Part shown: positions 2,309-47,861 of the stretch, piece by piece
Numbering within the stretch: position 1 is the first letter of the stretch
Layout: every line of letters begins with the position of its first letter
Origin: a virus
Strand: one strand, 5' to 3'
Length of the DNA: 64,000 nt
Virus record (IMG/VR): IMGVR_UViG_3300037840_000188
Span: 64,001-128,000 of that record
The notes under the pieces: model-generated
Seen by the model: only the letters and a program-made list of their open reading frames with translations
Databases searched by the model: none
Told to the model about the DNA's origin: nothing
Program-made: the position numbers and the translations under genes

Positions 2309-3574
2309 CTATACAAGGTAAGGTGCGTGGCTCGCACGCCACTTGCCGGTGTCCCATGGCGCTAAAATTTGTTCGAGTTGTTCGTAAGAAATATTCGTGA
2401 GGCCGACTTCCTCATCATTTCTCTCCATATCATTCAATAATCCCTCTGCCTTGATTTGGTGTTGCGTCGCGAGATTCAAATTAAAGTAGGGGTTGGGGTG
2501 ATCAATATCCGCGCCAGGATAACGAGCGCATTTCTCCAGTGCCATCTCCAGAAGTACTTCTCCACGGTTGGCGACGAATGGCGGTAATTGCGGTTGCTGA
2601 ACGGTGAGATCGCTTTCTTTCGCGATATAAATGTAAGGCAGGAGCGCGCTCTGAAACGAAGTCTGAAATGACGGCGCAGGCCAAATCTCGTATCGCGGTA
2701 CGCCGCTTGTGATTTGTGACTGTGCATTAATGACGAAAAGATCTCCCGAGATGTACGAGCCGCTCGTTGGAAAATAAATCTGAACACCATCCTGAAGATC
2801 TACCGGACTTCCGTCGGAAGGGGTCACGATAGGGCCAGTAAATGAAGTCTGTCCGGAGCGCATCCACTGAAATGCAGCGGTGCCAGGCGCGCCGGTCGTA
2901 GTGATCTGCACGATGTAAGTGGCGCTTGAAACATAAGAGTAGCCAAAGGTGGTTGTCGAGACTGGCGCGCTGCCCGTCGCCGCGACCGGAATCACTGGTC
3001 CAATCGTCCCGCCAAAGTTCGCTGTGTAATCCCTGAATGCAACCCCAATCGGGACTCCCTGGTTCGTACGCTGGGGGTCATACACCGCCAGTTCATTCTC
3101 GGTTATATTTATCCATAGGCGATAAGCTCCGCTTAGTGAAATAACTACGTACCAATAACCGAAATCCGCCGGGACCGGATAGTAACATTGCAAAATTTGG
3201 TACGGCACGTTGGTGATATCAGGCCCAGACCATGGTTGGTCGATTAAGATCGAAGTCGGTGATAGGTAGTTCTGGATCGTGTAATATGGATAGAGCAATC
3301 CAAATGCGCGAATCTGCTGTCCGACCATTTGCGGAGTCCAAGTGGTCCCAATACCGGTCAGGAGGTTCGGATTGCCAGTGCTGACATTTGTGGATATCGT
3401 GCCGGTATTGTAAATCGGAGGCGGGGCGAAAGTTCCGGACCTGCGGCGAAAAGACCATTCTCTCCGGCTTTGAAATGTGTGCCACGAATCCTGGATAAGC
3501 TGGGACGAAAGCTGCACCCCGACCGCTGGGCAACGATTTAAGAGGCGCTGGGTTAGTGTGTTATAGTCATCCAT
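2309..3574 (-). CDS. virion structural protein (head-tail adaptor/tubular-like)
   Basis: 421 aa, last gene of head operon, adaptor-like N-terminus with W.F motif and beta-rich insert. Confidence 0.55.
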   Translation of the reverse strand: MDDYNTLTQRLLNRCPAVGVQLSSQLIQDSWHTFQSRREWSFRRRSGTFAPPPIYNTGTISTNVSTGNPNLLTGIGTTWTPQMVGQQIRAFGLLYPYYTIQNYLSPTSILIDQPWSGPDITNVPYQILQCYYPVPADFGYWYVVISLSGAYRLWINITENELAVYDPQRTNQGVPIGVAFRDYTANFGGTIGPVIPVAATGSAPVSTTTFGYSYVSSATYIVQITTTGAPGTAAFQWMRSGQTSFTGPIVTPSDGSPVDLQDGVQIYFPTSGSYISGDLFVINAQSQITSGVPRYEIWPAPSFQTSFQSALLPYIYIAKESDLTVQQPQLPPFVANRGEVLLEMALEKCARYPGADIDHPNPYFNLNLATQHQIKAEGLLNDMERNDEEVGLTNISYEQLEQILAPWDTGKWRASHAPYLV

Positions 3575-20033: not shown

Positions 20034-20157
20034 TTCCCGGCATGTCGATGCGCGTTGATCCCTTACGGGAACGGTTGGAGTTGAACCAACTACCTAAAGC
20101 GTTGAAGGCTTTTGCTCTACCAAATGAGCTACGTGTAAGCGCGTCAGTGTCCGGGAA
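20034..20157 (-). ncRNA. Y RNA-like A (non-permuted D-anticodon-T module)
   Basis: Same terminal stem; GTAGCTCATTTGGTAGAGC, AAAGC-CTTCAAC-GCTTT, GTTGGTTCAACTCCAAC. Confidence 0.7.
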
Positions 20158-37827: not shown

Positions 37828-38400
37828 GAAACGGCCCAATCATTCTCGGAGGAAGAAGTTGATCGGGCCGCCTCACGCGTCTCTAACTGTGCAGGGTAGT
37901 ATATCTCACCTGACGCAGTGAAACCACAACCCCTTGCGTCCACCGCCACGGTTGCCACTACGCCGCAAAATTCCTCACAATCCAGTTGCAATGTTCTGCG
38001 GTGCTCAGTATGATCGATTCTGTCCCGGCGAGCGGGCGGCACAGAAGCGACGGCTGATGTGTTCGGAAGGCGGCGGGTGCCACATACGCCCGCCGTCGCT
38101 CTTTTATGTGGAAAGGGTACGTGTGCAACGCAACGGCAGTCCATTCTCTGATCTCCAGAAATTCCCCCTCCTCCGCACTACCATCTGCCCCTGTGGCGAG
38201 TCCGTGCTCCACGAGTTCATCCAGCCGGGGACTGTTTACTCCCTCGACATGTCGACCCGGCGCGGTGGCTTCACTTATCGGTGCGGGAGATGCGGCGTTG
38301 AACAACCCGACGTTCAGGTCGTCAAGGCCAGCCAGCAGTTGAATCCTGACCTTGGAATGGGGTGGTTGCCGTGGGGGTTGTTCAGCGAGGCAGAAGCGGC

Positions 38401-39201
38401 GTGAATTACTACAACGACAATAATCCAGATTCAGTTGCATGGCTAAAGCAATTGATTCTCGCCAATTTAATCCCAAATGGAGATATCGATGACCGATCCA
38501 TCGCCGACGTTGCGGGCGACGACCTTAAAGGCTATACCCAGTGTCATTTCTTTGCCGGGATCGGAGGATGGGCGGAGGCCCTGCGGCTCGCTGGATGGCC
38601 ATCTGACAGACCAGTGTGGACAGGGAGTTGTCCCTGTCAGCCATTCAGCGCAGGCGGACAGCAAAAAGGATTTAATGACGAGCGCCATTTATGGCCGCAC
38701 TTCAGACGCCTCATCGCGGAGCGCCGTCCTTCAGTTATCTTTGGAGAGCAAGTTGCATCGAAGCTTGGACGTAAATGGCTCGCCTCTTTACGACTTGACC
38801 TGGAAGCATTGGACTATGCAGTGGGGGGGGCAGATTTGTGCGCTGCGGGCCTCTGTGCGCCACATATCAGGCAGCGACTTTACTGGGTGGCTGACTCCGC
38901 TAGCTCGGGACTGGAAGGGGTATACGAAGCGATCCGGGGAATCGATATGCAATCAACTATCACGGCTTTACGGTCGCAGTGGGACGCCGAACCCAAAATG
39001 GACCGCGTGGCTTATGGGATACCCGCCAAAGTGGGACGATTGTGCGGTTTTGGGAATTCCATCGTCCCGCAGATCGGGGCGGTCTTCGTGAGGTCCTGCA
39101 TGGAAGCCGTTAATCAACCAGTTATTTCCTGTCACATATGCGGTGACGTTACGTCTATCAATACTGCGTGCCCCTCCTGTGGCGAGGTCTGTACCGCATG
39201 A
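38401..39201 (+). CDS. DNA cytosine-5 methyltransferase
   Basis: FFAGIGG, GSCPCQPFS, GEQV, PHIRQR, GNSIVPQ. Confidence 0.9.
   Translation: MNYYNDNNPDSVAWLKQLILANLIPNGDIDDRSIADVAGDDLKGYTQCHFFAGIGGWAEALRLAGWPSDRPVWTGSCPCQPFSAGGQQKGFNDERHLWPHFRRLIAERRPSVIFGEQVASKLGRKWLASLRLDLEALDYAVGGADLCAAGLCAPHIRQRLYWVADSASSGLEGVYEAIRGIDMQSTITALRSQWDAEPKMDRVAYGIPAKVGRLCGFGNSIVPQIGAVFVRSCMEAVNQPVISCHICGDVTSINTACPSCGEVCTA
38477..39091 (+). CDS. overlapping alternative-frame ORF within C5-MTase
   Basis: 204 codons open; WLTPLARDWKG and NPKWTAWLMGYPPKW motifs. Confidence 0.5.
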   Translation: MEISMTDPSPTLRATTLKAIPSVISLPGSEDGRRPCGSLDGHLTDQCGQGVVPVSHSAQADSKKDLMTSAIYGRTSDASSRSAVLQLSLESKLHRSLDVNGSPLYDLTWKHWTMQWGGQICALRASVRHISGSDFTGWLTPLARDWKGYTKRSGESICNQLSRLYGRSGTPNPKWTAWLMGYPPKWDDCAVLGIPSSRRSGRSS

Positions 39202-39241
39202 TCTGGCACCTCTCCCACCGCGCGGATAAGCGAGCGCTGCT

Positions 39242-39793
39242 ATGAAGTTCGCCTACTGCGATCCGCCATATATCGGCCAAGCCGCTCGACACTACAATTG
39301 CGCTGAAGTTGATCACCCGAAATTAATCACGCGACTCGTTGACGAGTTTCCTGACGGATGGGCGCTGTCGCTTTCGTCCACAACGCTTCAACAAATCCTG
39401 CCTCTCTGTCCGGCTGATGTCCGCATAGCGGCTTGGTGCAAATCATTCTGCGCTTTCAAGAAGGGCGTGAGGCCGTGCTACGCGTGGGAGCCGATCATCT
39501 TCTGGGGGGGGCGTAATCCGATGAACGGCTACAAGCACGCGCCGCCACCTAAGAATGGCAAGCAGAATACACCGAAGGATTTTCTGGTCGAGCCGATCAC
39601 CATGAAGAAAGGATTAACTGGCGCAAAGCCGCAGAAGGTCTGCGCCTGGATTCTGGATCTTCTCAACTTCCAGTACGGCGAAGACGAGATCCACGACCTC
39701 TTTCCCGGCAGTGGCTCCATGGCGGCGACGGTTGCAGGGCGTTGCGCCGATGGCTATATCGGCTATACCGAACGCTTCGAGGTGGTAGCGTGA
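39242..39793 (+). CDS. putative amino (N6A/N4C) DNA methyltransferase
   Basis: YCDPPY catalytic motif; DLFPGSG SAM-binding motif. Confidence 0.75.
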   Translation: MKFAYCDPPYIGQAARHYNCAEVDHPKLITRLVDEFPDGWALSLSSTTLQQILPLCPADVRIAAWCKSFCAFKKGVRPCYAWEPIIFWGGRNPMNGYKHAPPPKNGKQNTPKDFLVEPITMKKGLTGAKPQKVCAWILDLLNFQYGEDEIHDLFPGSGSMAATVAGRCADGYIGYTERFEVVA

Positions 39794-40180: not shown

Positions 40181-43165
40181 GTGTCCCCACTCCAGCCCGA
40201 CCTCGATACAATTCGCCGCTCCGTCGCTCTATTCCTTAAACCAGGCTCAGTAGCCGAACTGCGCGCCCCGAAATCCAGTCAGGGCGTCATTTCCGGTTAC
40301 TTTTCTGATCCCGAGGCTCTCGTCAAAGCGGCGGCCTCAGTTAGTGGGCGAGCGCCGGGCGTTTACGCCACGATCAACAAGGTCCATCCAGACGCGCTTA
40401 AAAAGAATACTCCAAACCAGGCGCGTGCCAACGCTATCGAGACCACAGCCGACCGCGAGATCACGCACCGCTGCTGGCTCCTTTTTGACTTCGATCCGAA
40501 CCGTGCCACCGGAACTTCATCCACAGACGCCGAACACGATGAGGCTCTGAAGGTAGCCGCCGAGGTCGGAAACGCCATTATCGGTGAAGGGTGGCCCGAG
40601 CCGATTTATGCGGACTCTGGAAATGGCGGACATCTTCTCTACCCGCTCGATCTTCCAAACACAGACTATACCCGCGATCTCATAAAAGCCGTCCTTAAAG
40701 CACTGGCGAAGCGCTACGAGACCACCTCGATCACCATCGATAAAACGGTATTTAACGCTTCGCGCATTTCGAAGATATACGGCACTGCGGCATGCAAGGG
40801 GCAGCATACCGAAGAGCGCCCACACCGCCTCAGCTCGCTGATCCACGTACCGTCCGATCTTAAACCAGTTACACAGGATCTTCTCGAAGCCCTTGCAGCG
40901 GAAGTGAAGCCTGAGCCCGCGCCTCCCGCGCCGGAAAGATACTCAAACGCGCCATCGAATTTCCGTCTCGAAGATTTCATGTCCCGTTACGGGATCAGAG
41001 TACATCGCGGGCCGATTCCTTATGACGGCGGAGAAAAATGGCAGCTGAAGAACTGTCCTTTCAATCCAGAGCACAAAGCTCCGGATTCGATGATTTTCCG
41101 CGCACCATCGGGACGTCTTGGATTCCGGTGCCTCCATAATTCCTGCGCGGATTACAACTGGACCAGCCTGCGCGATCTTTTCGAACCAGAGCGGCCAAAG
41201 GCCAAAGTCACGTCAATCACGAATGGCCATGCCGCTGATCACCCGCCCGCCGAGCCAGAACCAGAAGAAGATCCGGACAGTCATCTCCTCGCGTTATGCG
41301 ATGAGATCATCGCCTCAAAGCAGTCTCACCGGATATACGAGAAGAGCCTATTCGACCTGATCGGAAAAGCAGACAAGTACGTCGGTATCCAAGTCCGTTC
41401 CATGCTCCGAAAAGAGTTCGGGACCGATATGGTGATGACTGGCACTGGATCATGGCCCGAGCTTTATCGGGACGCGATTAAAACCGCCCCATGGCGAAAG
41501 AGAACTCCGGAACTGGAAGACAATCCATCCCCCGGCTCACTACTTCCGGTTCAGATAACCGACCGCCAGCTCCGTGATATATCGCTCGATGCGATCCGTC
41601 AGGTGAAAGCCAAGAACGACCCACCCAGCCTGTTTGTCCGCTCGGGCGCGCTGGTCCACGTCATTCAGGACGAGAAGGAACGCCCCAGCGTCTCCGTAGT
41701 TACCGAATCCCGGCTGCGAGGAGTCCTCGCCCGCGTCGCCAATTTCATGAAGACCGACCGAAACGGCGAGCAGAGAAACGCGTTCCCGCCGGTCGAGGTT
41801 GTGAAGGACATCATGGCCTTCAATCCCCAATCCTGGCCGTTCCCGCGCCTGATCAGCGTGGCTGAAGTGCCGACCCTCCGTCCGGACGGGACTATCCTCG
41901 ACCAGCCCGGATACGACGAGGACTCGGCTATTTTCTACGCCCCCGCCAGCACCCTGAAGCCTTTCCCGCTCCCGGAGTCTCCCACTTTCGACGATGTAGA
42001 GAGCGCGAAGTGCCTGGTAGAGGAGGCTATCGGAGAATTTCCTTATGCGGACCTAGCCAGCCACGCCAATACCTACGGCTTGCTTCTCACGCCAATCCTG
42101 CGCCCGGCATTCAGCGGCTGCGCCCCCCTCGCCGTGGTAGACGCGCCTCAGGCCGGAACCGGTAAGTCTCTCCTGATCGACGTCCTCTCGATCATCACCA
42201 CCGGACGCCCGGCGGCTATGATGCCATACCCATACAAGGAAGAAGAGATGCAGAAACAGATTGGCGCGTCGCTCTCCGCTGGACGCCAACTCATCGTCTT
42301 CGACAACCTGGAAGGTGAACTCCGGAGCCCGGCTCTCGCGCTCGCAATCACCGCCAAAGAATTCGAGGCCAGAATCCTCGGCGTCAGCCAAAACATGACG
42401 GTCGAGAATTCATCGACGTGGGTAGTAACAGGAAACAATATCCGGCCCGCTGGCGATATGCCCCGACGGTGCTATCAGATCCGGCTGAATGCACAGAGAT
42501 CAAAGCCGTACATGGACCGCCAGTTCAAGCACCCCAGACTGCTTAATTGGGTGACTGAAAATCGGTCACAGATCCTCCACGCTCTACTCGTTATCGCCAG
42601 AGCGTGGTTCGCTGATGGCCGAAAAGAAACGGTCCAAAAGACGCTCGGTAGTTTCGAGGAATGGCATCAGATTGTGGGTAGTGTAATTGAACATGCCAAG
42701 ATGCCAGAATTTTTGAAGAACTACTCCGACTTCATAGACCAGGAAGACGAGAGTCCTAGACAGTGGGAGGAGTTTCTTTTACAGATATTTACAATTTGGG
42801 GCGCTGCGAATGCCGAGAAAACTAATGAATTTACTATCGCCGACTTGATTATAGCGATCAATACCGATAAGACGGAACTTCGCACCGTCCTTCCAGCGGA
42901 GGTCGCTGACTGCCTCGAAAAGAAAATCAGTCACCGGATCGTGATCGGCAAGATGTTCCGCACCCGCCGACAACGCCACTTTGGCATCGGTGCACGTGAG
43001 TGCTGGCTTGACCGAGCCGACGACGGTACAGAGCACAAAGGCTCGGCTAAGTGGGTGGTCTGCCGATCCCTGAAGGGTGCTCAAGCTACGGTTGAAACTA
43101 ATCCCCAGATCGAGAGCAAGCCGCCCGACGAAGACCTAGAAGACCGGATGACGCTCTGGTCATAA
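40181..43165 (+). CDS. primase-helicase-like replication protein
   Basis: AEP-like FDFD and SGNGGH, Zn finger CPF..H...CLH.SC, P-loop APQAGTGKS, FDN, TGNN. Confidence 0.85.
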   Translation: MSPLQPDLDTIRRSVALFLKPGSVAELRAPKSSQGVISGYFSDPEALVKAAASVSGRAPGVYATINKVHPDALKKNTPNQARANAIETTADREITHRCWLLFDFDPNRATGTSSTDAEHDEALKVAAEVGNAIIGEGWPEPIYADSGNGGHLLYPLDLPNTDYTRDLIKAVLKALAKRYETTSITIDKTVFNASRISKIYGTAACKGQHTEERPHRLSSLIHVPSDLKPVTQDLLEALAAEVKPEPAPPAPERYSNAPSNFRLEDFMSRYGIRVHRGPIPYDGGEKWQLKNCPFNPEHKAPDSMIFRAPSGRLGFRCLHNSCADYNWTSLRDLFEPERPKAKVTSITNGHAADHPPAEPEPEEDPDSHLLALCDEIIASKQSHRIYEKSLFDLIGKADKYVGIQVRSMLRKEFGTDMVMTGTGSWPELYRDAIKTAPWRKRTPELEDNPSPGSLLPVQITDRQLRDISLDAIRQVKAKNDPPSLFVRSGALVHVIQDEKERPSVSVVTESRLRGVLARVANFMKTDRNGEQRNAFPPVEVVKDIMAFNPQSWPFPRLISVAEVPTLRPDGTILDQPGYDEDSAIFYAPASTLKPFPLPESPTFDDVESAKCLVEEAIGEFPYADLASHANTYGLLLTPILRPAFSGCAPLAVVDAPQAGTGKSLLIDVLSIITTGRPAAMMPYPYKEEEMQKQIGASLSAGRQLIVFDNLEGELRSPALALAITAKEFEARILGVSQNMTVENSSTWVVTGNNIRPAGDMPRRCYQIRLNAQRSKPYMDRQFKHPRLLNWVTENRSQILHALLVIARAWFADGRKETVQKTLGSFEEWHQIVGSVIEHAKMPEFLKNYSDFIDQEDESPRQWEEFLLQIFTIWGAANAEKTNEFTIADLIIAINTDKTELRTVLPAEVADCLEKKISHRIVIGKMFRTRRQRHFGIGARECWLDRADDGTEHKGSAKWVVCRSLKGAQATVETNPQIESKPPDEDLEDRMTLWS

Positions 43166-43199
43166 TCGAGCCCAACTTTAGGTTCATTCCGAGAATAAA

Positions 43200-43510
43200 A
43201 ACAAAAACACTCCCCATTGTTTTTTTGTGTACTACAGATGAAGTTTTTACGATTTATTCGGGGAGTCGCGGAAACTACTTAGATCTCCCCAGCAATTCCC
43301 CATACACACTCCCCAAATTTATAAGTCTGTATATATGTTATATTTATACGGATACTACGTTTATAGTATGGGGAGTTGGGGAGTCATATGGACTTCGTAT
43401 ATGAGAACAAAATAAAATACACATTTCCGCATATAATCTTTATTGCTGCATGTGTTCTCACAGCGCCGGGCGGCTCTACAACTCCCCCGACTCCCCAACC
43501 CCCCAAAAAA
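43200..43510. repeat. putative replication origin: (A)CTCCCC iteron-like repeats around an AT-rich core
   Basis: About 8-9 CTCCCC/GGGGAG-like copies in both orientations flanking AT-rich 43317-43368, directly after primase. Confidence 0.55.
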
Positions 43511-44432
43511 AATCAGCGCCCGATGGAAGGCGTTTTCCGCTCACCCCGCTCACCTCCGCCACGCACATTCGAAACTGCTCCTGTTCGCTCGGCTCTCGGG
43601 GGCGACTCCGTGGCGCTGGCGATCCGCCAAGCTCCGTGAGGTCGCCCAACCGCCGGAAATTCGCTGTAGGCCTCCCTAGCACGAAAGGAGGCCATCCCAC
43701 GAACCACTCACACAGCTCCATGGAGCCTAGCTTTACGGCCTTCCTAATTTTTTTTTGATTTTTTTTGGAATTTTACGGTGGTTCCTGAAAAAACCGTTAT
43801 TGGGCCTGAGCGTTCAGCGACGCGTCCGCGCGTGGCGTCCGGACCCATCAAACAATGTGGAAGTCTATTTAAGTCAATACTTTGAATGTCTTACGTGCGG
43901 TCTCCGGATACCATGAAAGGACACATAACCGCTCGGTTACGTGTCAACACGAGACGGCATAAACACAGCTAACAACAACAAAACAAACAACATAATAGCG
44001 GGATAATGGGATAATGGCCGCCGGAGAGTGGCGGTAGTGCCGGAGACCGCGTTACAGGCCGCGTGTAGGGAGTCCGGCGCGCCGATAAAGAGCTGCCACG
44101 CGTTCACTTGCCGCATGTTCACGCGCTAAATCTGCCAATTCCCGACGTGTGCGCCCTAGGTAATCCCGAGGGTGCGCGCAAACAGAACACGCGGTTTTAC
44201 TCCGTCGATTGAAGTGTTTACATTGACTGCATCGCCAATCTGAAGCGCCAATCAGCACGTAGACAATCTTACCTAGTCAATGAATATTTATGCAATCAGA
44301 TGACGGATTTAAGCATAGATCAAGTATGGACTCATGTTTCCCGAGTGACCGCGCGGAATGAATAGATATTCATCGCGGTGAATATTTATACATATTCGCG
44401 GGAGACCACAAACAGCACGGCGAAGATAGGTA

Positions 44433-44461
44433 TTGACGCCAGCAGTGGTACATGCTAACTT
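44433..44461 (+). promoter_or_regulatory. early promoter P1
   Basis: TTGACG-17-TAACTT, shared GTACATGCTAA. Confidence 0.8.
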
Positions 44462-44480
44462 ACATAGTGAGGTGATAGCC

Positions 44481-44702
44481 ATGAAACAGAGACAGATTAC
44501 AGTGCTGGCAGCTGAGAGTCAAGACATGTTGGAGTCTCACGGCGCTAGTGTAGAGCAATTATTCGATACCATCGGTGAAGCGAAGAAACGCGCTAAATAC
44601 TACCTCACTGAGGACTACATGAACGTTTGCGAGTCCAGTACGAAACTCGGGTATGCTCGGGTCCTGGTGAATGGTGATTGCGTGGCGGACTATGGCGAAT
44701 AG
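44481..44702 (+). CDS. early hypothetical protein
   Basis: RBS GAGGTG after P1. Confidence 0.7.
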   Translation: MKQRQITVLAAESQDMLESHGASVEQLFDTIGEAKKRAKYYLTEDYMNVCESSTKLGYARVLVNGDCVADYGE

Positions 44703-45006
44703 CTTGGAACGCGATCCGTTCGGAAAATGCGAGTGTGGCTGTAACCGCGCGCAACATTCAGGCGGACTTGGAATGTGCAATGGCTTCAAATGCCGTTGTG
44801 GACGTTACAAAAAACAGACTCGCGAGTTTCTGCATATGCAAATGATGCGAGACGCGCTGAATGCGGCAATCGAAATGATTGAAGATTTACCCGGCGATGG
44901 ACGGACTATAAAGGTATGCTTGCCGAATTACCAGGAACGTAATGATATGGTTCGGCAAATGAAGGCCGCTATCTCGGGTCCGGTGACACTCGAAAAAAAG
45001 TCTTGA
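44692..45006 (+). CDS. early Cys-rich hypothetical protein
   Basis: CECGC...H...C...C.C. Confidence 0.6.
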   Translation: MANSLERDPFGKCECGCNRAQHSGGLGMCNGFKCRCGRYKKQTREFLHMQMMRDALNAAIEMIEDLPGDGRTIKVCLPNYQERNDMVRQMKAAISGPVTLEKKS

Positions 45007-45031
45007 CTTGGTGCATCGTACATGCTAAGCT
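45003..45031 (+). promoter_or_regulatory. early promoter P2
   Basis: TTGACT-17-TAAGCT, shared GTACATGCTAA. Confidence 0.8.
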
Positions 45032-45037
45032 GGTTTC

Positions 45038-45635
45038 AGTTAAGGCGAGACACAAGCAAGCGGATAGAGTCACTCCAAGGATACTCACCGATAGCGCGGG
45101 AAACTGCAAGCTTTAACGAGACCACGGGTTACCACGGGACACGGGCAGGGGTTAAATGAGACCTGCCCGTATTACAGGTGCGCCATTCGTTTGCGGAATG
45201 CGGGTAAACTCCGATTCGTCAGCAAGCTTATACGCTCACTTGCGGGAGACACGGGAGACCAGCACGGCGAGACCTGACGCACGCGAGTGGCGACACTGGT
45301 AAGGGTCTCAAGAGTAGTAACCGCGAAACGCGTTCGAGTGGCGACACTGATATCGCGGAGACCACGGGTAGTCAGTTCATTGATATAGCGTCTCGGGACA
45401 AGCTTACGCTTGCTTCGGATGCAATCGGCCATGGGATACGCGGCCATGGCTATCGTCAGAGACACTGGCGATTCATAACCGGAAACATCAGGTTCGCAAA
45501 AACGTCCGGTTAACGTGCTGATAGACCGCGTGGCACGCGCGGGACTGTGACAGAGTCGGATAGGTGTCAACACACTACGGGAGACCGTAGACGAACATAT
45601 AGAGCCATGAGTGCTTACGCATTCGTGGCTCTTAG
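45038..45635 (+). ncRNA. candidate ~600-nt structured ncRNA / long leader
   Basis: Follows P2, no plus-strand ORF of 60 aa or more, many GNRA- and TTAC-capped hairpins, repeated GAGAC and CACGGG. Confidence 0.55.
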
Positions 45636-45649
45636 TGTTTGGAGATAAC

Positions 45650-46342
45650 ATGTCAAAACTGATTAAAGACGGCGATAGCCTGGTTTCCGCTAAGACGTCA
45701 GGCGGATATGAAATCCATGTCTATGATGACGGATTCGGCCCATTGTGGATATCCCGAAACTCAATCGGGATTAACGGTATCGTTCGCGCGCGGTCATGGG
45801 AAGACGCGTACTCGATTTGTGAAGACGAGTTTTTTCCGGAAGCGGACGAGACCATAGAACAGCTGGTTAAAGAGTACGGATTTAAGCGGGAGAATGTCAA
45901 AATCATTCATCCTGCGCACCGTAAGACTTCCCCAGTGACGTACGCCAATGGCCACGTGGAAGAATTCGACATAGAAACATCCGTCCAACGTGATGCGACT
46001 ATGGCGGATTACCAGCTAACCGGCGGTAGTCTATTGCCTGGCCAGTTCGTACGCTGGGAAACGCGGGAAACTCCGGATGCGGACGCGTGGTCCGAGAATG
46101 AACTGTTTTGTGAGGCGTACGGATTCCGTCCAAATGGCCGCAATGAACGGGATACCATCGGCCATGGGATTTACTCGAAAGACTTGAACGGCGATAGCCT
46201 GGATAGGCTCACTCCGGAATTGCTGGCGGATATCGGTATTGAACTGGTGATTGAGGCTGAAGAGTCCGAAGAATCGGACCCGCGCGACGATCCTGCAAAT
46301 AACCCGGATGACGGCGGACGCGAGACACTGGCGGACGCGTAG
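45650..46342 (+). CDS. acidic early hypothetical protein
   Basis: RBS GGAG; D/E-rich. Confidence 0.75.
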   Translation: MSKLIKDGDSLVSAKTSGGYEIHVYDDGFGPLWISRNSIGINGIVRARSWEDAYSICEDEFFPEADETIEQLVKEYGFKRENVKIIHPAHRKTSPVTYANGHVEEFDIETSVQRDATMADYQLTGGSLLPGQFVRWETRETPDADAWSENELFCEAYGFRPNGRNERDTIGHGIYSKDLNGDSLDRLTPELLADIGIELVIEAEESEESDPRDDPANNPDDGGRETLADA

Positions 46343-46660
46343 ACCATGGAAAAACGCAAAAAACACTCCCATCGTTGCGCGATATGCCGTCAAGGCGTGT
46401 GAGGGGGTGTGTGCGTGTATTGGGCGGGTGGCGGTGAGCTACCCGGATGGTACGGAGGCTAAAGGTGAAATATAACGACAAAACCACACGCGCAATCGCG
46501 CTTCGTGAGACATGGCCAGCCACCTATGGTGCGGAATTCGTATCTCGCATAATGCTCGACGATGAGAACGTGAGCACCGAGCAAAAGGCACTCATCCGCG
46601 AATGGCTGGAACGCGACACTACCGCGCGGATCTCTGGAGCATAAGTTTTGTCGAGTGCGC

Positions 46661-46689
46661 TTGACAGCGTACTTCGTACATGCTAAGCT
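46661..46689 (+). promoter_or_regulatory. early promoter P3
   Basis: TTGACA-17-TAAGCT, shared GTACATGCTAA; near-leaderless ATG at 46697. Confidence 0.8.
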
Positions 46690-47222
46690 ACAAACCATGA
46701 CAGAGACGCCCACGCAAAAACTACAGCGTCATACGGCCCTGAGCGTCGAGTACCGGCGCGAAGCCTGGGCAGCGGGCATTACGTCACCGTACCGCCTCGG
46801 GCGCTACGTTCAGGATCGCTTGTGTGGCGTGAGCCATGCACGGGCGATGGAGTTGCAGAAAGGGAAGAGAGAGCCAGTATGAGCAAACGGGAAGCGCTTG
46901 ACATTATCATGGACCTCGCACTCGGGAACATGTGCGACCGGGACAAGATGCCAGAAGAGCACACACGGCAGGCGCAGGCAATGGATATTGTGCTAGCGAT
47001 GGCGCAGGAGAGCTGAGGCATGCCCAAGCCAACCGAGAAAAGCGGCGACTGCTTTCTTTGCCGGTCCGCGCGTACTCAAATGCGGGGAATTATCCGCCGT
47101 TTGGAGATTTGTGCGCGAACGAATCAGAGCGAGCCAAGGGGCGAGATCGGGGCGCACGCGGTAGCGGCTGAGCAGTGGCGTGTCGCCGCGATCCTGAAAC
47201 ACTTCGTCGCGGAGTGTCTCTC

Positions 47223-47444
47223 ATGACCACCCAGACCCAGACCCCCGCCGAATGGCTGGCGGAATAGTTCGAATACGAGTATTGCGCCGAATGCGGCGGG
47301 GACGCGGAGCACCATACCGTTATCGGAGTGCTTGGCAATTACTTCGCGCGCTGCGATTATCCGCCATCGGAGGCTACGGGATTGGGGTTTGATCCGGTCA
47401 TCGTGGAATACAGGGCACAGAAAGAGAAGGCGACTTCGATCTGA
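47223..47444 (+). CDS. Zn-binding small protein with internal in-frame TAG (47265-47267)
   Basis: MTTQTQTPAEWLAE*FEYEYCAECGGDAEHH...; ATGA-coupled to upstream gene. Confidence 0.6.
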
Positions 47445-47471
47445 TGGCGAAGGAAGGGGATATTTAAGCGA

Positions 47472-47861
47472 ATGTCGACACGTTGCACGACTCATTTTAA
47501 GTACGGCGAACGCACGGCAGCAGTTGTCTTCCGGCATACCGACGGCTATCCGTCAGGCGCGGGCGTCGACCTGCGTAAGTTTCTGGTCGAATGTAAGGCG
47601 CTGGAAGATAGCAGACTAAGCGACCCCTCAATGCTGGCCGCAAGATATGTGGTTTACCTTGCGGATATGTTCAGGGAGCACGGTGCGTCGCGGTTAAACT
47701 TTCTCTCGGTGCGAGTGATGATGGACGATTCTGGAGACGCTCAGTATCGGTATGTCATCGACTGTGCAAAAATTGACGCGGACGGCCTGCCGGAGCTGAC
47801 CTGCCTGAGTGTTTACGACGATCACAAAGAGGTAGCGATACCGAAGGCGGTCGCACTATGA
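47472..47861 (+). CDS. conserved phage early protein
   Basis: MSTR...FRHTDGYPSGAG...YRYVID. Confidence 0.75.
   Translation: MSTRCTTHFKYGERTAAVVFRHTDGYPSGAGVDLRKFLVECKALEDSRLSDPSMLAARYVVYLADMFREHGASRLNFLSVRVMMDDSGDAQYRYVIDCAKIDADGLPELTCLSVYDDHKEVAIPKAVAL

Follow-up and report, generated by a model that had tools for sequence, protein, structure and literature searches.

We analyzed a 64,000-nt window (bases 64001-128000) of the genome of an uncultured, soil-type phage, an IMG/VR virus record of 140,995 nt that is rated as complete. The large terminase of this phage shares only ~26% identity with those of cultured phages, and relatives of the genes neighboring the locus described here lie mostly on metagenome contigs. 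The locus, a ~600-nt stretch at 45038-45635 (hereafter the element), sits in an early-looking region on the + strand with the following features around it:

Ending at 43165: primase/helicase-like gene, 994 aa, assigned by PHROG matches
44481-44702 and 44692-45006: two small genes between a gene-free 1.3 kb and the 600-nt stretch
45003-45031, + strand: predicted promoter P2, with -35 box TTGACT (45003-45008), a 17-nt spacer and TG-extended -10 box TAAGCT (45026-45031)
45650-46342, + strand: ORF of 230 aa, the first gene 3' of the element

The gene-free 1.3 kb that follows the primase/helicase-like gene (43166-44480) contains T-runs, iteron-like repeats (among them a 16-mer in three copies, at 44279, 44357 and 44377) and the minimum of the cumulative GC skew, and is a candidate replication origin or regulatory region. 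It also holds a perfect 11-nt inverted repeat (43897-43907 / 44040-44050), its arms 132 nt apart, with GGTCTC in one arm and GAGACC in the other. Just 5' of P2, the gene at 44692-45006 encodes a cysteine-rich, zinc-finger-like protein of 104 aa that belongs to no Pfam or PHROG family and has almost no relatives in IMG/VR. Farther upstream, the region 38362-39793 contains a gene for a C5 cytosine methylase and, after it, an ORF that matches D12-class N6-adenine methylases weakly, below threshold. On the 3' side of the element, the 230-aa protein is a widespread early phage protein, with 765 homologues that are mostly metagenomic (phage contigs) and no match in Pfam, PHROG, the PDB or the ESM Atlas.

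A related element is present at ~1888-2530 of L020, a 2.9-kb Logan contig that encodes a homologue 74% identical to the 230-aa protein. There, the element lies downstream of the 230-aa gene, between two genes that have no relative in the window phage. Flanking genes are thus unrelated between the two phages except for the 230-aa gene itself, which is on the opposite side in L020; and as all loci were fetched through this gene, the apparent linkage between it and the RNA carries no weight. Homology between the two elements begins at the -35 box and ends at an 11-nt tail, and these limits show the unit to be a discrete cassette, one that has changed place in an early region of mosaic composition. 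Both elements have a 5' module, a 3' domain and a closing helix in common. They differ in the center, which is ~90 nt longer in the window and includes an internal 25-nt duplication, and before the closing helix, where L020 has ~90 extra nt.

A third phage, L018, has the 5' module without the rest of the element (nhmmer E=1.4e-5). In this case it makes up only a 5' UTR of ~130 nt, which leads from an early-type promoter to the ribosome-binding site of a gene of 97 codons (L018 3857-3996), and it may serve there in cis in its own right. L018 also carries, at 3035-3121, a non-coding piece 81% identical to an 89-nt piece of the gene-free region of the window (43752-43836), likewise non-coding. 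Two further contigs, L024 and L025, encode an identical 230-aa protein, and we set them aside as uninformative because their element is 100% identical to that of the window. Another related phage contig, L019, has 2.4 kb without a called gene (321-2690) 5' of its early genes, and other non-coding elements may be located there.

Covariance models of the 3' core (R1) and the 5' module (R2) delimit the family. R1 scores 188 bits on both the window and L020. For R2 the scores are 89-98 bits in the window, L020 and L018, and it has no other hit in 444 kb. Among nine whole IMG/VR records, 49 metagenome loci and the other fetched loci, R1 detected no further member. Blastn against 50,697 phage records and a look-up of the neighbors of the L020 element gave no further homologue, and no new member emerged from exact-pattern scans of IMG/VR (with the invariant loop described below and with a 5' motif) or of JGI metagenomes. 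A pattern scan of GTDB returned 13 matches where ~17 are expected by chance, and according to R1 each of them consists of the 18-mer only. Overall, the family is real but rare, with two full members among the collections searched.

The sequence upstream of the element resembles an early promoter. The core TTGAC-N10-GTACATGCTAA, in which GTACATGCTAA is 11 nt long, occurs exactly three times in the whole genome, at 44433, 45003 (P2) and 46661, always on the + strand. Together these sites read as a -35 box TTGACN, a 17-nt spacer and a TG-extended -10 box TAAnCT, and they look like a phage-specific early promoter class. P2 was missed by a simple consensus scan because its -10 box is weak. Boxes of the form TTGACA-17/18-TAAnCT precede both the L020 element and the L018 leader, and in all three phages the 5' module lies ~20 nt behind such a promoter; a search with the promoter 16-mer returned three contigs, all unrelated. 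The sequence-only reading had proposed that the element has an early promoter of its own, and P2 agrees with that proposal, with a predicted transcription start near 45038. The next promoter of the class lies at 46661, beyond the 230-aa gene, which has no promoter of its own and must therefore be read from P2 through the RNA.

The stretch is non-coding. On the + strand of 45038-45635 there is no ORF above 48 aa under table 11 or with TAG read as Q or TGA read as W, as the sequence-only reading had anticipated when it saw no plausible + strand gene; the two alternative codes were rejected, as neither gives a credible ORF. Those + strand ORFs that do exist start inside the promoter and lack ribosome-binding sites. 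The sole sizeable ORF is a frame of 159 aa on the - strand (45172-45651), which is uninterrupted and of which the gene caller took 91 codons in the identical contig L025. This ORF has no match to a Pfam family, however, and in L020 it is broken into pieces in different frames. Moreover, each of the three frames contains GAGAC copies (see below), the substitutions lack codon periodicity (40 columns differ in the best-aligned 158-column core, with no period of three; 15/11/11), and a protein search with the translated conserved block, aimed at spuriously called ORFs, retrieved no protein. A conserved peptide had been named at the outset as an outcome that would undo the RNA reading; with neither codon periodicity nor a preserved - strand frame, it is hardly credible that the 159-aa ORF or a small + strand peptide is what this stretch encodes.

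Folding instead points to a structured RNA. Compared with shuffled sequences, the window element has a fold z-score of -7.7 on the + strand and -3.1 on the - strand, and the L020 element has z-scores of -4.9 and -4.5 on its two strands. The predicted layout comprises a conserved 5' module, a variable center, a conserved 3' domain and a closing helix:

45036-45122, + strand: conserved 5' module (~90 nt), aligning with L020 1921-2008 and L018 3888-3982
45096-45107, + strand: hairpin GCGG-GAAA-CTGC
45123-45311, + strand: variable central domain without an alignable L020 counterpart; hairpins from the MFE fold
45141-45149/45162-45170, + strand: 9-bp stem in the central domain, with a 12-nt loop ending in GAGA
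45246-45273, + strand: three close GAGAC copies in the central domain
45284-45298, + strand: first copy of the GCGA-tetraloop hairpin, in the central domain (MFE fold)
45286-45297 and 45337-45348, + strand: hairpin AGTG-GCGA-CACT, inside a 25-nt direct repeat
45312-45592, + strand: conserved 3' domain (core ~280 nt), from alignment A2 with L020 2101-2388
45321-45326/45353-45358, + strand: helix in the 3' domain enclosing the GNRA hairpin 45337-45348
45388-45422, + strand: variable hairpin in the 3' domain
Near 45400, + strand: hairpin AAGC-TTAC-GCTT
45427-45434/45444-45451 and 45452-45459/45465-45472, + strand: two helices in the 3' domain
45476-45481/45507-45512, + strand: helix in the 3' domain enclosing a 25-nt loop
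45485-45503, + strand: invariant stretch of 19 nt within the 25-nt loop; no other run identical to L020 is as long
45526-45532/45536-45542, + strand: helix in the 3' domain
45548-45551/45566-45569, + strand: helix in the 3' domain
45575-45590, + strand: GAGA-tetraloop hairpin CTACGG-GAGA-CCGTAG in the 3' domain
45592-45645, + strand: closing helix (7 bp, 2x2 internal loop, 14 bp) with tail TAGTGTTTGGA

Every hairpin named in the sequence-only reading is present where that reading had placed it. The 5' module opens with a single-stranded, GAGAC-bearing leader (45042-45056) that is identical in L020, followed by a small multi-helix fold. The 25-nt direct repeat (45277-45301 and 45328-45352, 51 nt apart) is an internal duplication. 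Hairpins with GNRA tetraloops are enriched more than 10-fold, on the + strand only: the window element has four compared with 0.26 in shuffled sequences, and the L020 element three compared with 0.28. The invariant 19-nt loop is a candidate contact site; it holds GGUUCG, possibly a T-loop-like motif, and the helix that closes it has undergone one compensatory and one wobble change between the window and L020. The complement of this loop is absent from the phage genome, and it has no obvious antisense target.

Comparison of the two full-length elements shows that the helices have been maintained. In a 290-column alignment of the 3' domain, RNAalifold proposes 52 pairs, of which 13 have changes in both partners and four in one partner, with no pair broken, though these counts come from one sequence pair and are inflated because the consensus was derived from the same alignment. 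As a control, sliding the partners by 1-3 columns reduced the compensatory pairs to 0-1 and pairing to 31-39%. The same hairpins are predicted independently, at homologous positions, when each RNA is folded as a single sequence, and all 14 of the 14 differences in stems of the best-aligned core keep pairing. In the 5' module, across three sequences, three of 12 consensus pairs are changed on both sides. The homologue and covariation comparison that the sequence-only reading had put forward thus came out in its favor. Nine of the pair cells are G.U and would be A.C on the opposite strand, which identifies the + strand as the RNA.

The closing helix has a predicted stability of -32.6 kcal/mol (z -8.2) and contains a 14-bp hairpin at 45601-45632. 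L020 has the same closing architecture at 2472-2528 (7 bp, 2x2 loop, 12+4 bp; z -7.1), in which the upper stem is wholly different and the 11-nt tail TAGTGTTTGGA is identical. A terminator scan flagged the helix as terminator-like in the window and left its L020 counterpart unflagged. Since the basal stem takes up the U-rich tail in its own pairing, any termination at the helix would be leaky at best. In length and internal loop the helix is similar to the RNase III sites known from early transcripts of phages, and by this analogy it may be a processing site. The Shine-Dalgarno sequence GGAG of the 230-aa gene (45641-45644) overlaps the last pair of the helix by one base. Because the tail departs from a canonical U-tract and expression of the 230-aa gene needs read-through, the RNA must at least also be a leader. 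We rejected an identity of the closing hairpin as group II domain V: it has no bulge, no GNRA loop and no Rfam match, and its sequence is not conserved in L020.

The most conspicuous primary-sequence feature of the element is the motif GAGAC. There are nine copies on the + strand of 45038-45635 and two on the - strand, and these 11 GAGAC/GTCTC copies form the single highest peak in the 140,995-nt genome, where the mean is 0.96 per 600 nt. These figures match the roughly 11 copies against one expected that the sequence-only reading had counted, and the motif-bearing repeat it had noted is also real: a 12-mer starting with GAGAC occurs twice, at 45118 and 45358. In dinucleotide shuffles of the window element, GAGAC occurs 1.40 +/- 1.09 times (maximum 6), with none of 1000 shuffles reaching nine. 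The L020 element has six copies compared with 1.07 in shuffles (0/1000) and none on the - strand. CACGGG is also enriched in the window element (five copies compared with 0.43). Outside the element, both GAGAC/GTCTC and the 6-mers GAGACC/GGTCTC are as frequent as a Markov model predicts; the genome thus gives no hint of restriction avoidance, and the motif cluster is a feature of this locus. The additional cluster reported upstream, at 43899-44407, fared less well: its four copies exist, but the three on the + strand compare with 0.89 in shuffles, and 55 of 1000 shuffles reach three.

Between the window and L020, the number of GAGAC copies has been kept and their position has not. Only one copy, in the 5' leader, is positionally conserved; in the aligned 3' domain, each GAGAC of either RNA faces 1-3 mismatches in the other. 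In eight of the 15 copies in the two RNAs, GAGA is predicted to be unpaired and the C to start a stem. These copies include true GAGA tetraloops and larger loops ending in GAGA, and tetraloops alone account for 1-2 copies per RNA. Conservation of number without position is the pattern that redundant, multivalent contact sites would show. Equally, it could reflect decay from a richer ancestor, and the enrichment could in part be a by-product of GAGA tetraloops and internal duplications.

Two further GAGAC clusters were seen on related contigs. The coding part of L020 (1-1885) has ten sense-strand copies compared with 3.5 expected (1/1000 shuffles reaches this number) and none antisense; the part of the window that matches it (45650-47500) shows no GAGAC excess. 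The contig of another relative, L064, contains 28 tandem copies of the 7-nt CGGTCTC, which reads GAGACCG on the other strand (151-349), together with a 15-nt unit repeated 22.7 times (the two regions being 151-349 and 2933-3272). We rejected this cluster as a homologue, since a 7-nt tandem repeat is unrelated to the RNA.

The element belongs to no catalogued RNA family. We ran cmscan against Rfam 15 on the whole window at gathering thresholds, and on 43100-45700 and L020 permissively at E<=10; neither the window element nor the L020 RNA matched at the gathering score or at E<=10, which settles in the negative the search for GOLLD, ROOL and other families that the sequence-only reading had suggested. 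In particular, the models of ROOL (RF03087) and GOLLD (RF01998, including its conserved 3' domain) do not match. The only hit in the whole window at gathering thresholds is a tRNA at 20071-20134, 25 kb from the element, and ARAGORN finds no tRNA or tmRNA in 43000-46000. Group I and II introns, RNase P, tmRNA, 6S RNA and riboswitches gave no Rfam or ARAGORN match, and there is no split host gene around the element. A repeat search found only the two-copy 25-nt repeat and scattered short motifs, with no tandem array of 28-36-nt units.

We conclude with considerable confidence that the element is a functional structured + strand RNA. Judged from sequence comparison, it is very likely a large folded RNA that founds a new family, the kind itself (large structured RNAs of phages) being already known. 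The part of the sequence-only reading that proposed a large structured non-coding RNA thus finds support, with helices kept in L020 and a family new to Rfam. The protein sponge or anti-defense scaffold it put forward is a hypothesis, and its alternative of a DNA decoy is not supported.

For how such an RNA might work, we infer transcription, release of a stable RNA, action in trans and a binding partner. In the model we propose, host sigma-70 RNA polymerase would start at P2, near 45038, early in infection. The transcript would fold into a ~600-nt multi-domain RNA made up of the conserved 5' module, a variable center built partly by duplication, the ~280-nt 3' core and the ~23-bp closing helix. 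This helix would stop a part of the polymerases, or would be cut, as its size and shape are those of an RNase III substrate; either event would release a stable RNA, and read-through would supply the 230-aa gene. The RNA would then act in trans as a multivalent scaffold or sponge, with the many GAGA(C) loops, several GNRA tetraloops and the one invariant 19-nt loop as the points at which it would touch either a protein or RNA. Taken as a whole, this statement of a stand-alone early RNA acting as a multivalent scaffold or sponge is tentative, and we give it somewhat less than an even chance. A more specific version, in which the reiterated GAGA(C) loops soak up a host RNA-binding defense protein or RNA-processing protein in the first minutes of infection, appears unlikely.

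Several features of the locus would also fit a long structured 5' leader that acts in cis only, either in put/nut-like antitermination or in the processing, stability or translation of early genes. The RNA and the 230-aa gene have no promoter between them, the nearest one downstream being that at 46661; the closing helix reaches one base into the Shine-Dalgarno sequence; the tail is not a clean terminator, and that of L020 is unflagged; and the 5' module directly follows early promoters in three phages, forming a plain 5' UTR in L018. Against this reading, the Shine-Dalgarno sequence is left free. A gene-specific switch is contradicted by the genes 3' of the element, which are unrelated among the three phages (the window phage, L020 and L018); a length of 600 nt, 280 nt of it a conserved core, far exceeds the needs of known cis antiterminators; and the long early operon of this phage starts at the 46661 promoter without such a leader. 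We regard action in cis alone as a serious possibility that is nonetheless on the unlikely side. The RNA could instead be an ornate particle of the ROOL/GOLLD kind, consisting of RNA only, in which the GNRA, GAGA and invariant loops make tertiary or quaternary RNA-RNA contacts without a protein. Its ~600-nt length, its presence in phages, the more than 10-fold enrichment of GNRA hairpins and an evolution apparently by gain and loss of modules all agree with this idea, as does a conserved 3' domain joined to a variable 5'/central part, which parallels GOLLD (PMC12286853). We consider it improbable, however, as ROOL and GOLLD models do not match, no tRNA genes adjoin the element (the only tRNA match in the window being 25 kb away), no tetraloop receptor or kissing-loop pair was identified, and most GAGAC copies are not tetraloops.

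A further alternative is that the functional form is DNA, with the GAGAC/GGTCTC array serving as protein sites, as type IIS decoys (GGTCTC is a type IIS site) or as part of a replication origin or primer transcript. The 11-fold local excess of the motif, the location of the element 1-2.5 kb from the cumulative GC-skew minimum and the primase-helicase gene, and the C5 and N6 DNA methylase genes 6 kb upstream (the N6 match being weak) are all compatible with such a role. Against it, RNA is indicated by the compensatory changes and the G.U pairs, the motif favors one strand (9:2 in the window element, 6:0 in L020), and its sites are not positionally conserved. Elsewhere, 5-mers and 6-mers occur at Markov expectation, without restriction avoidance, and sequences better suited to an origin, AT-rich and iteron-like, are found upstream of the element at 43.2-44.4 kb. 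A functional DNA array is thus very improbable, and the type IIS decoy proposed in the sequence-only reading in particular is not supported, given the Markov expectation outside the element, the strand bias and the constraint on base pairing, with G.U pairs that work only in + strand RNA.

A stand-alone RNA of the kind we favor would add a new family to the large folded phage RNAs such as ROOL and GOLLD, which are few, striking and functionally unexplained. The element is experimentally tractable, as a compact cassette with a predicted promoter of its own, a sharply conserved 19-nt loop and a short motif conserved in number. If this motif proves to be a site of protein binding or assembly, the element would be the first RNA of a sponge or cage type to be linked with the early phase of infection, in which a phage takes over its host. 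Its rarity, with two full members, limits the general impact.

Known systems resemble the element in part. HK022 putL and putR RNAs are ~70 nt long with two stem-loops, and the lambda nut boxB is a single 15-nt hairpin. Like these, the element places a module (its 5' module) directly behind early promoters, contains GNRA-type hairpin loops and precedes genes that need read-through. Unlike them, it is 600 nt long and has its conserved 3' core at a great distance from the promoter, it lacks an identified N-like protein or boxA partner, and the longest early operon of this phage lacks it. RNA anti-CRISPRs and pseudo-ToxI decoys copy a defined host repeat of 28-36 nt in tandem. The element shares with these anti-defense decoys that it is a predicted early phage RNA whose repeated units could titrate a host protein, but it has no tandem array and its hairpins all differ in sequence.

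ROOL and GOLLD RNAs, the known kind closest to the element, often lie beside tRNA genes or islands in phages and prophages, although this is not obligatory. The element is likewise phage-encoded and several hundred nucleotides long, with many helices, no ORF, and one conserved and one variable domain. It differs in its position away from tRNA genes, in an early region behind an early-type promoter, in its reiterated GAGAC, in its occurrence in only two phage lineages and in the lack of a covariance-model match. In GOLLD, the 3' domain is conserved and the 5'/central part varies; the functions of both ROOL and GOLLD are unknown (PMC12286853). The protein sponges CsrB and RsmZ offer a functional analogy only: in these RNAs, as in the element, a short motif occurs in many copies, often placed in the loops of hairpins or in linkers, and copy number is kept while positions drift between homologues. 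Unlike CsrB and RsmZ, the element is phage-borne, repeats GAGAC rather than GGA, and combines its motif copies with a large conserved folded core in an RNA of ~600 nt.
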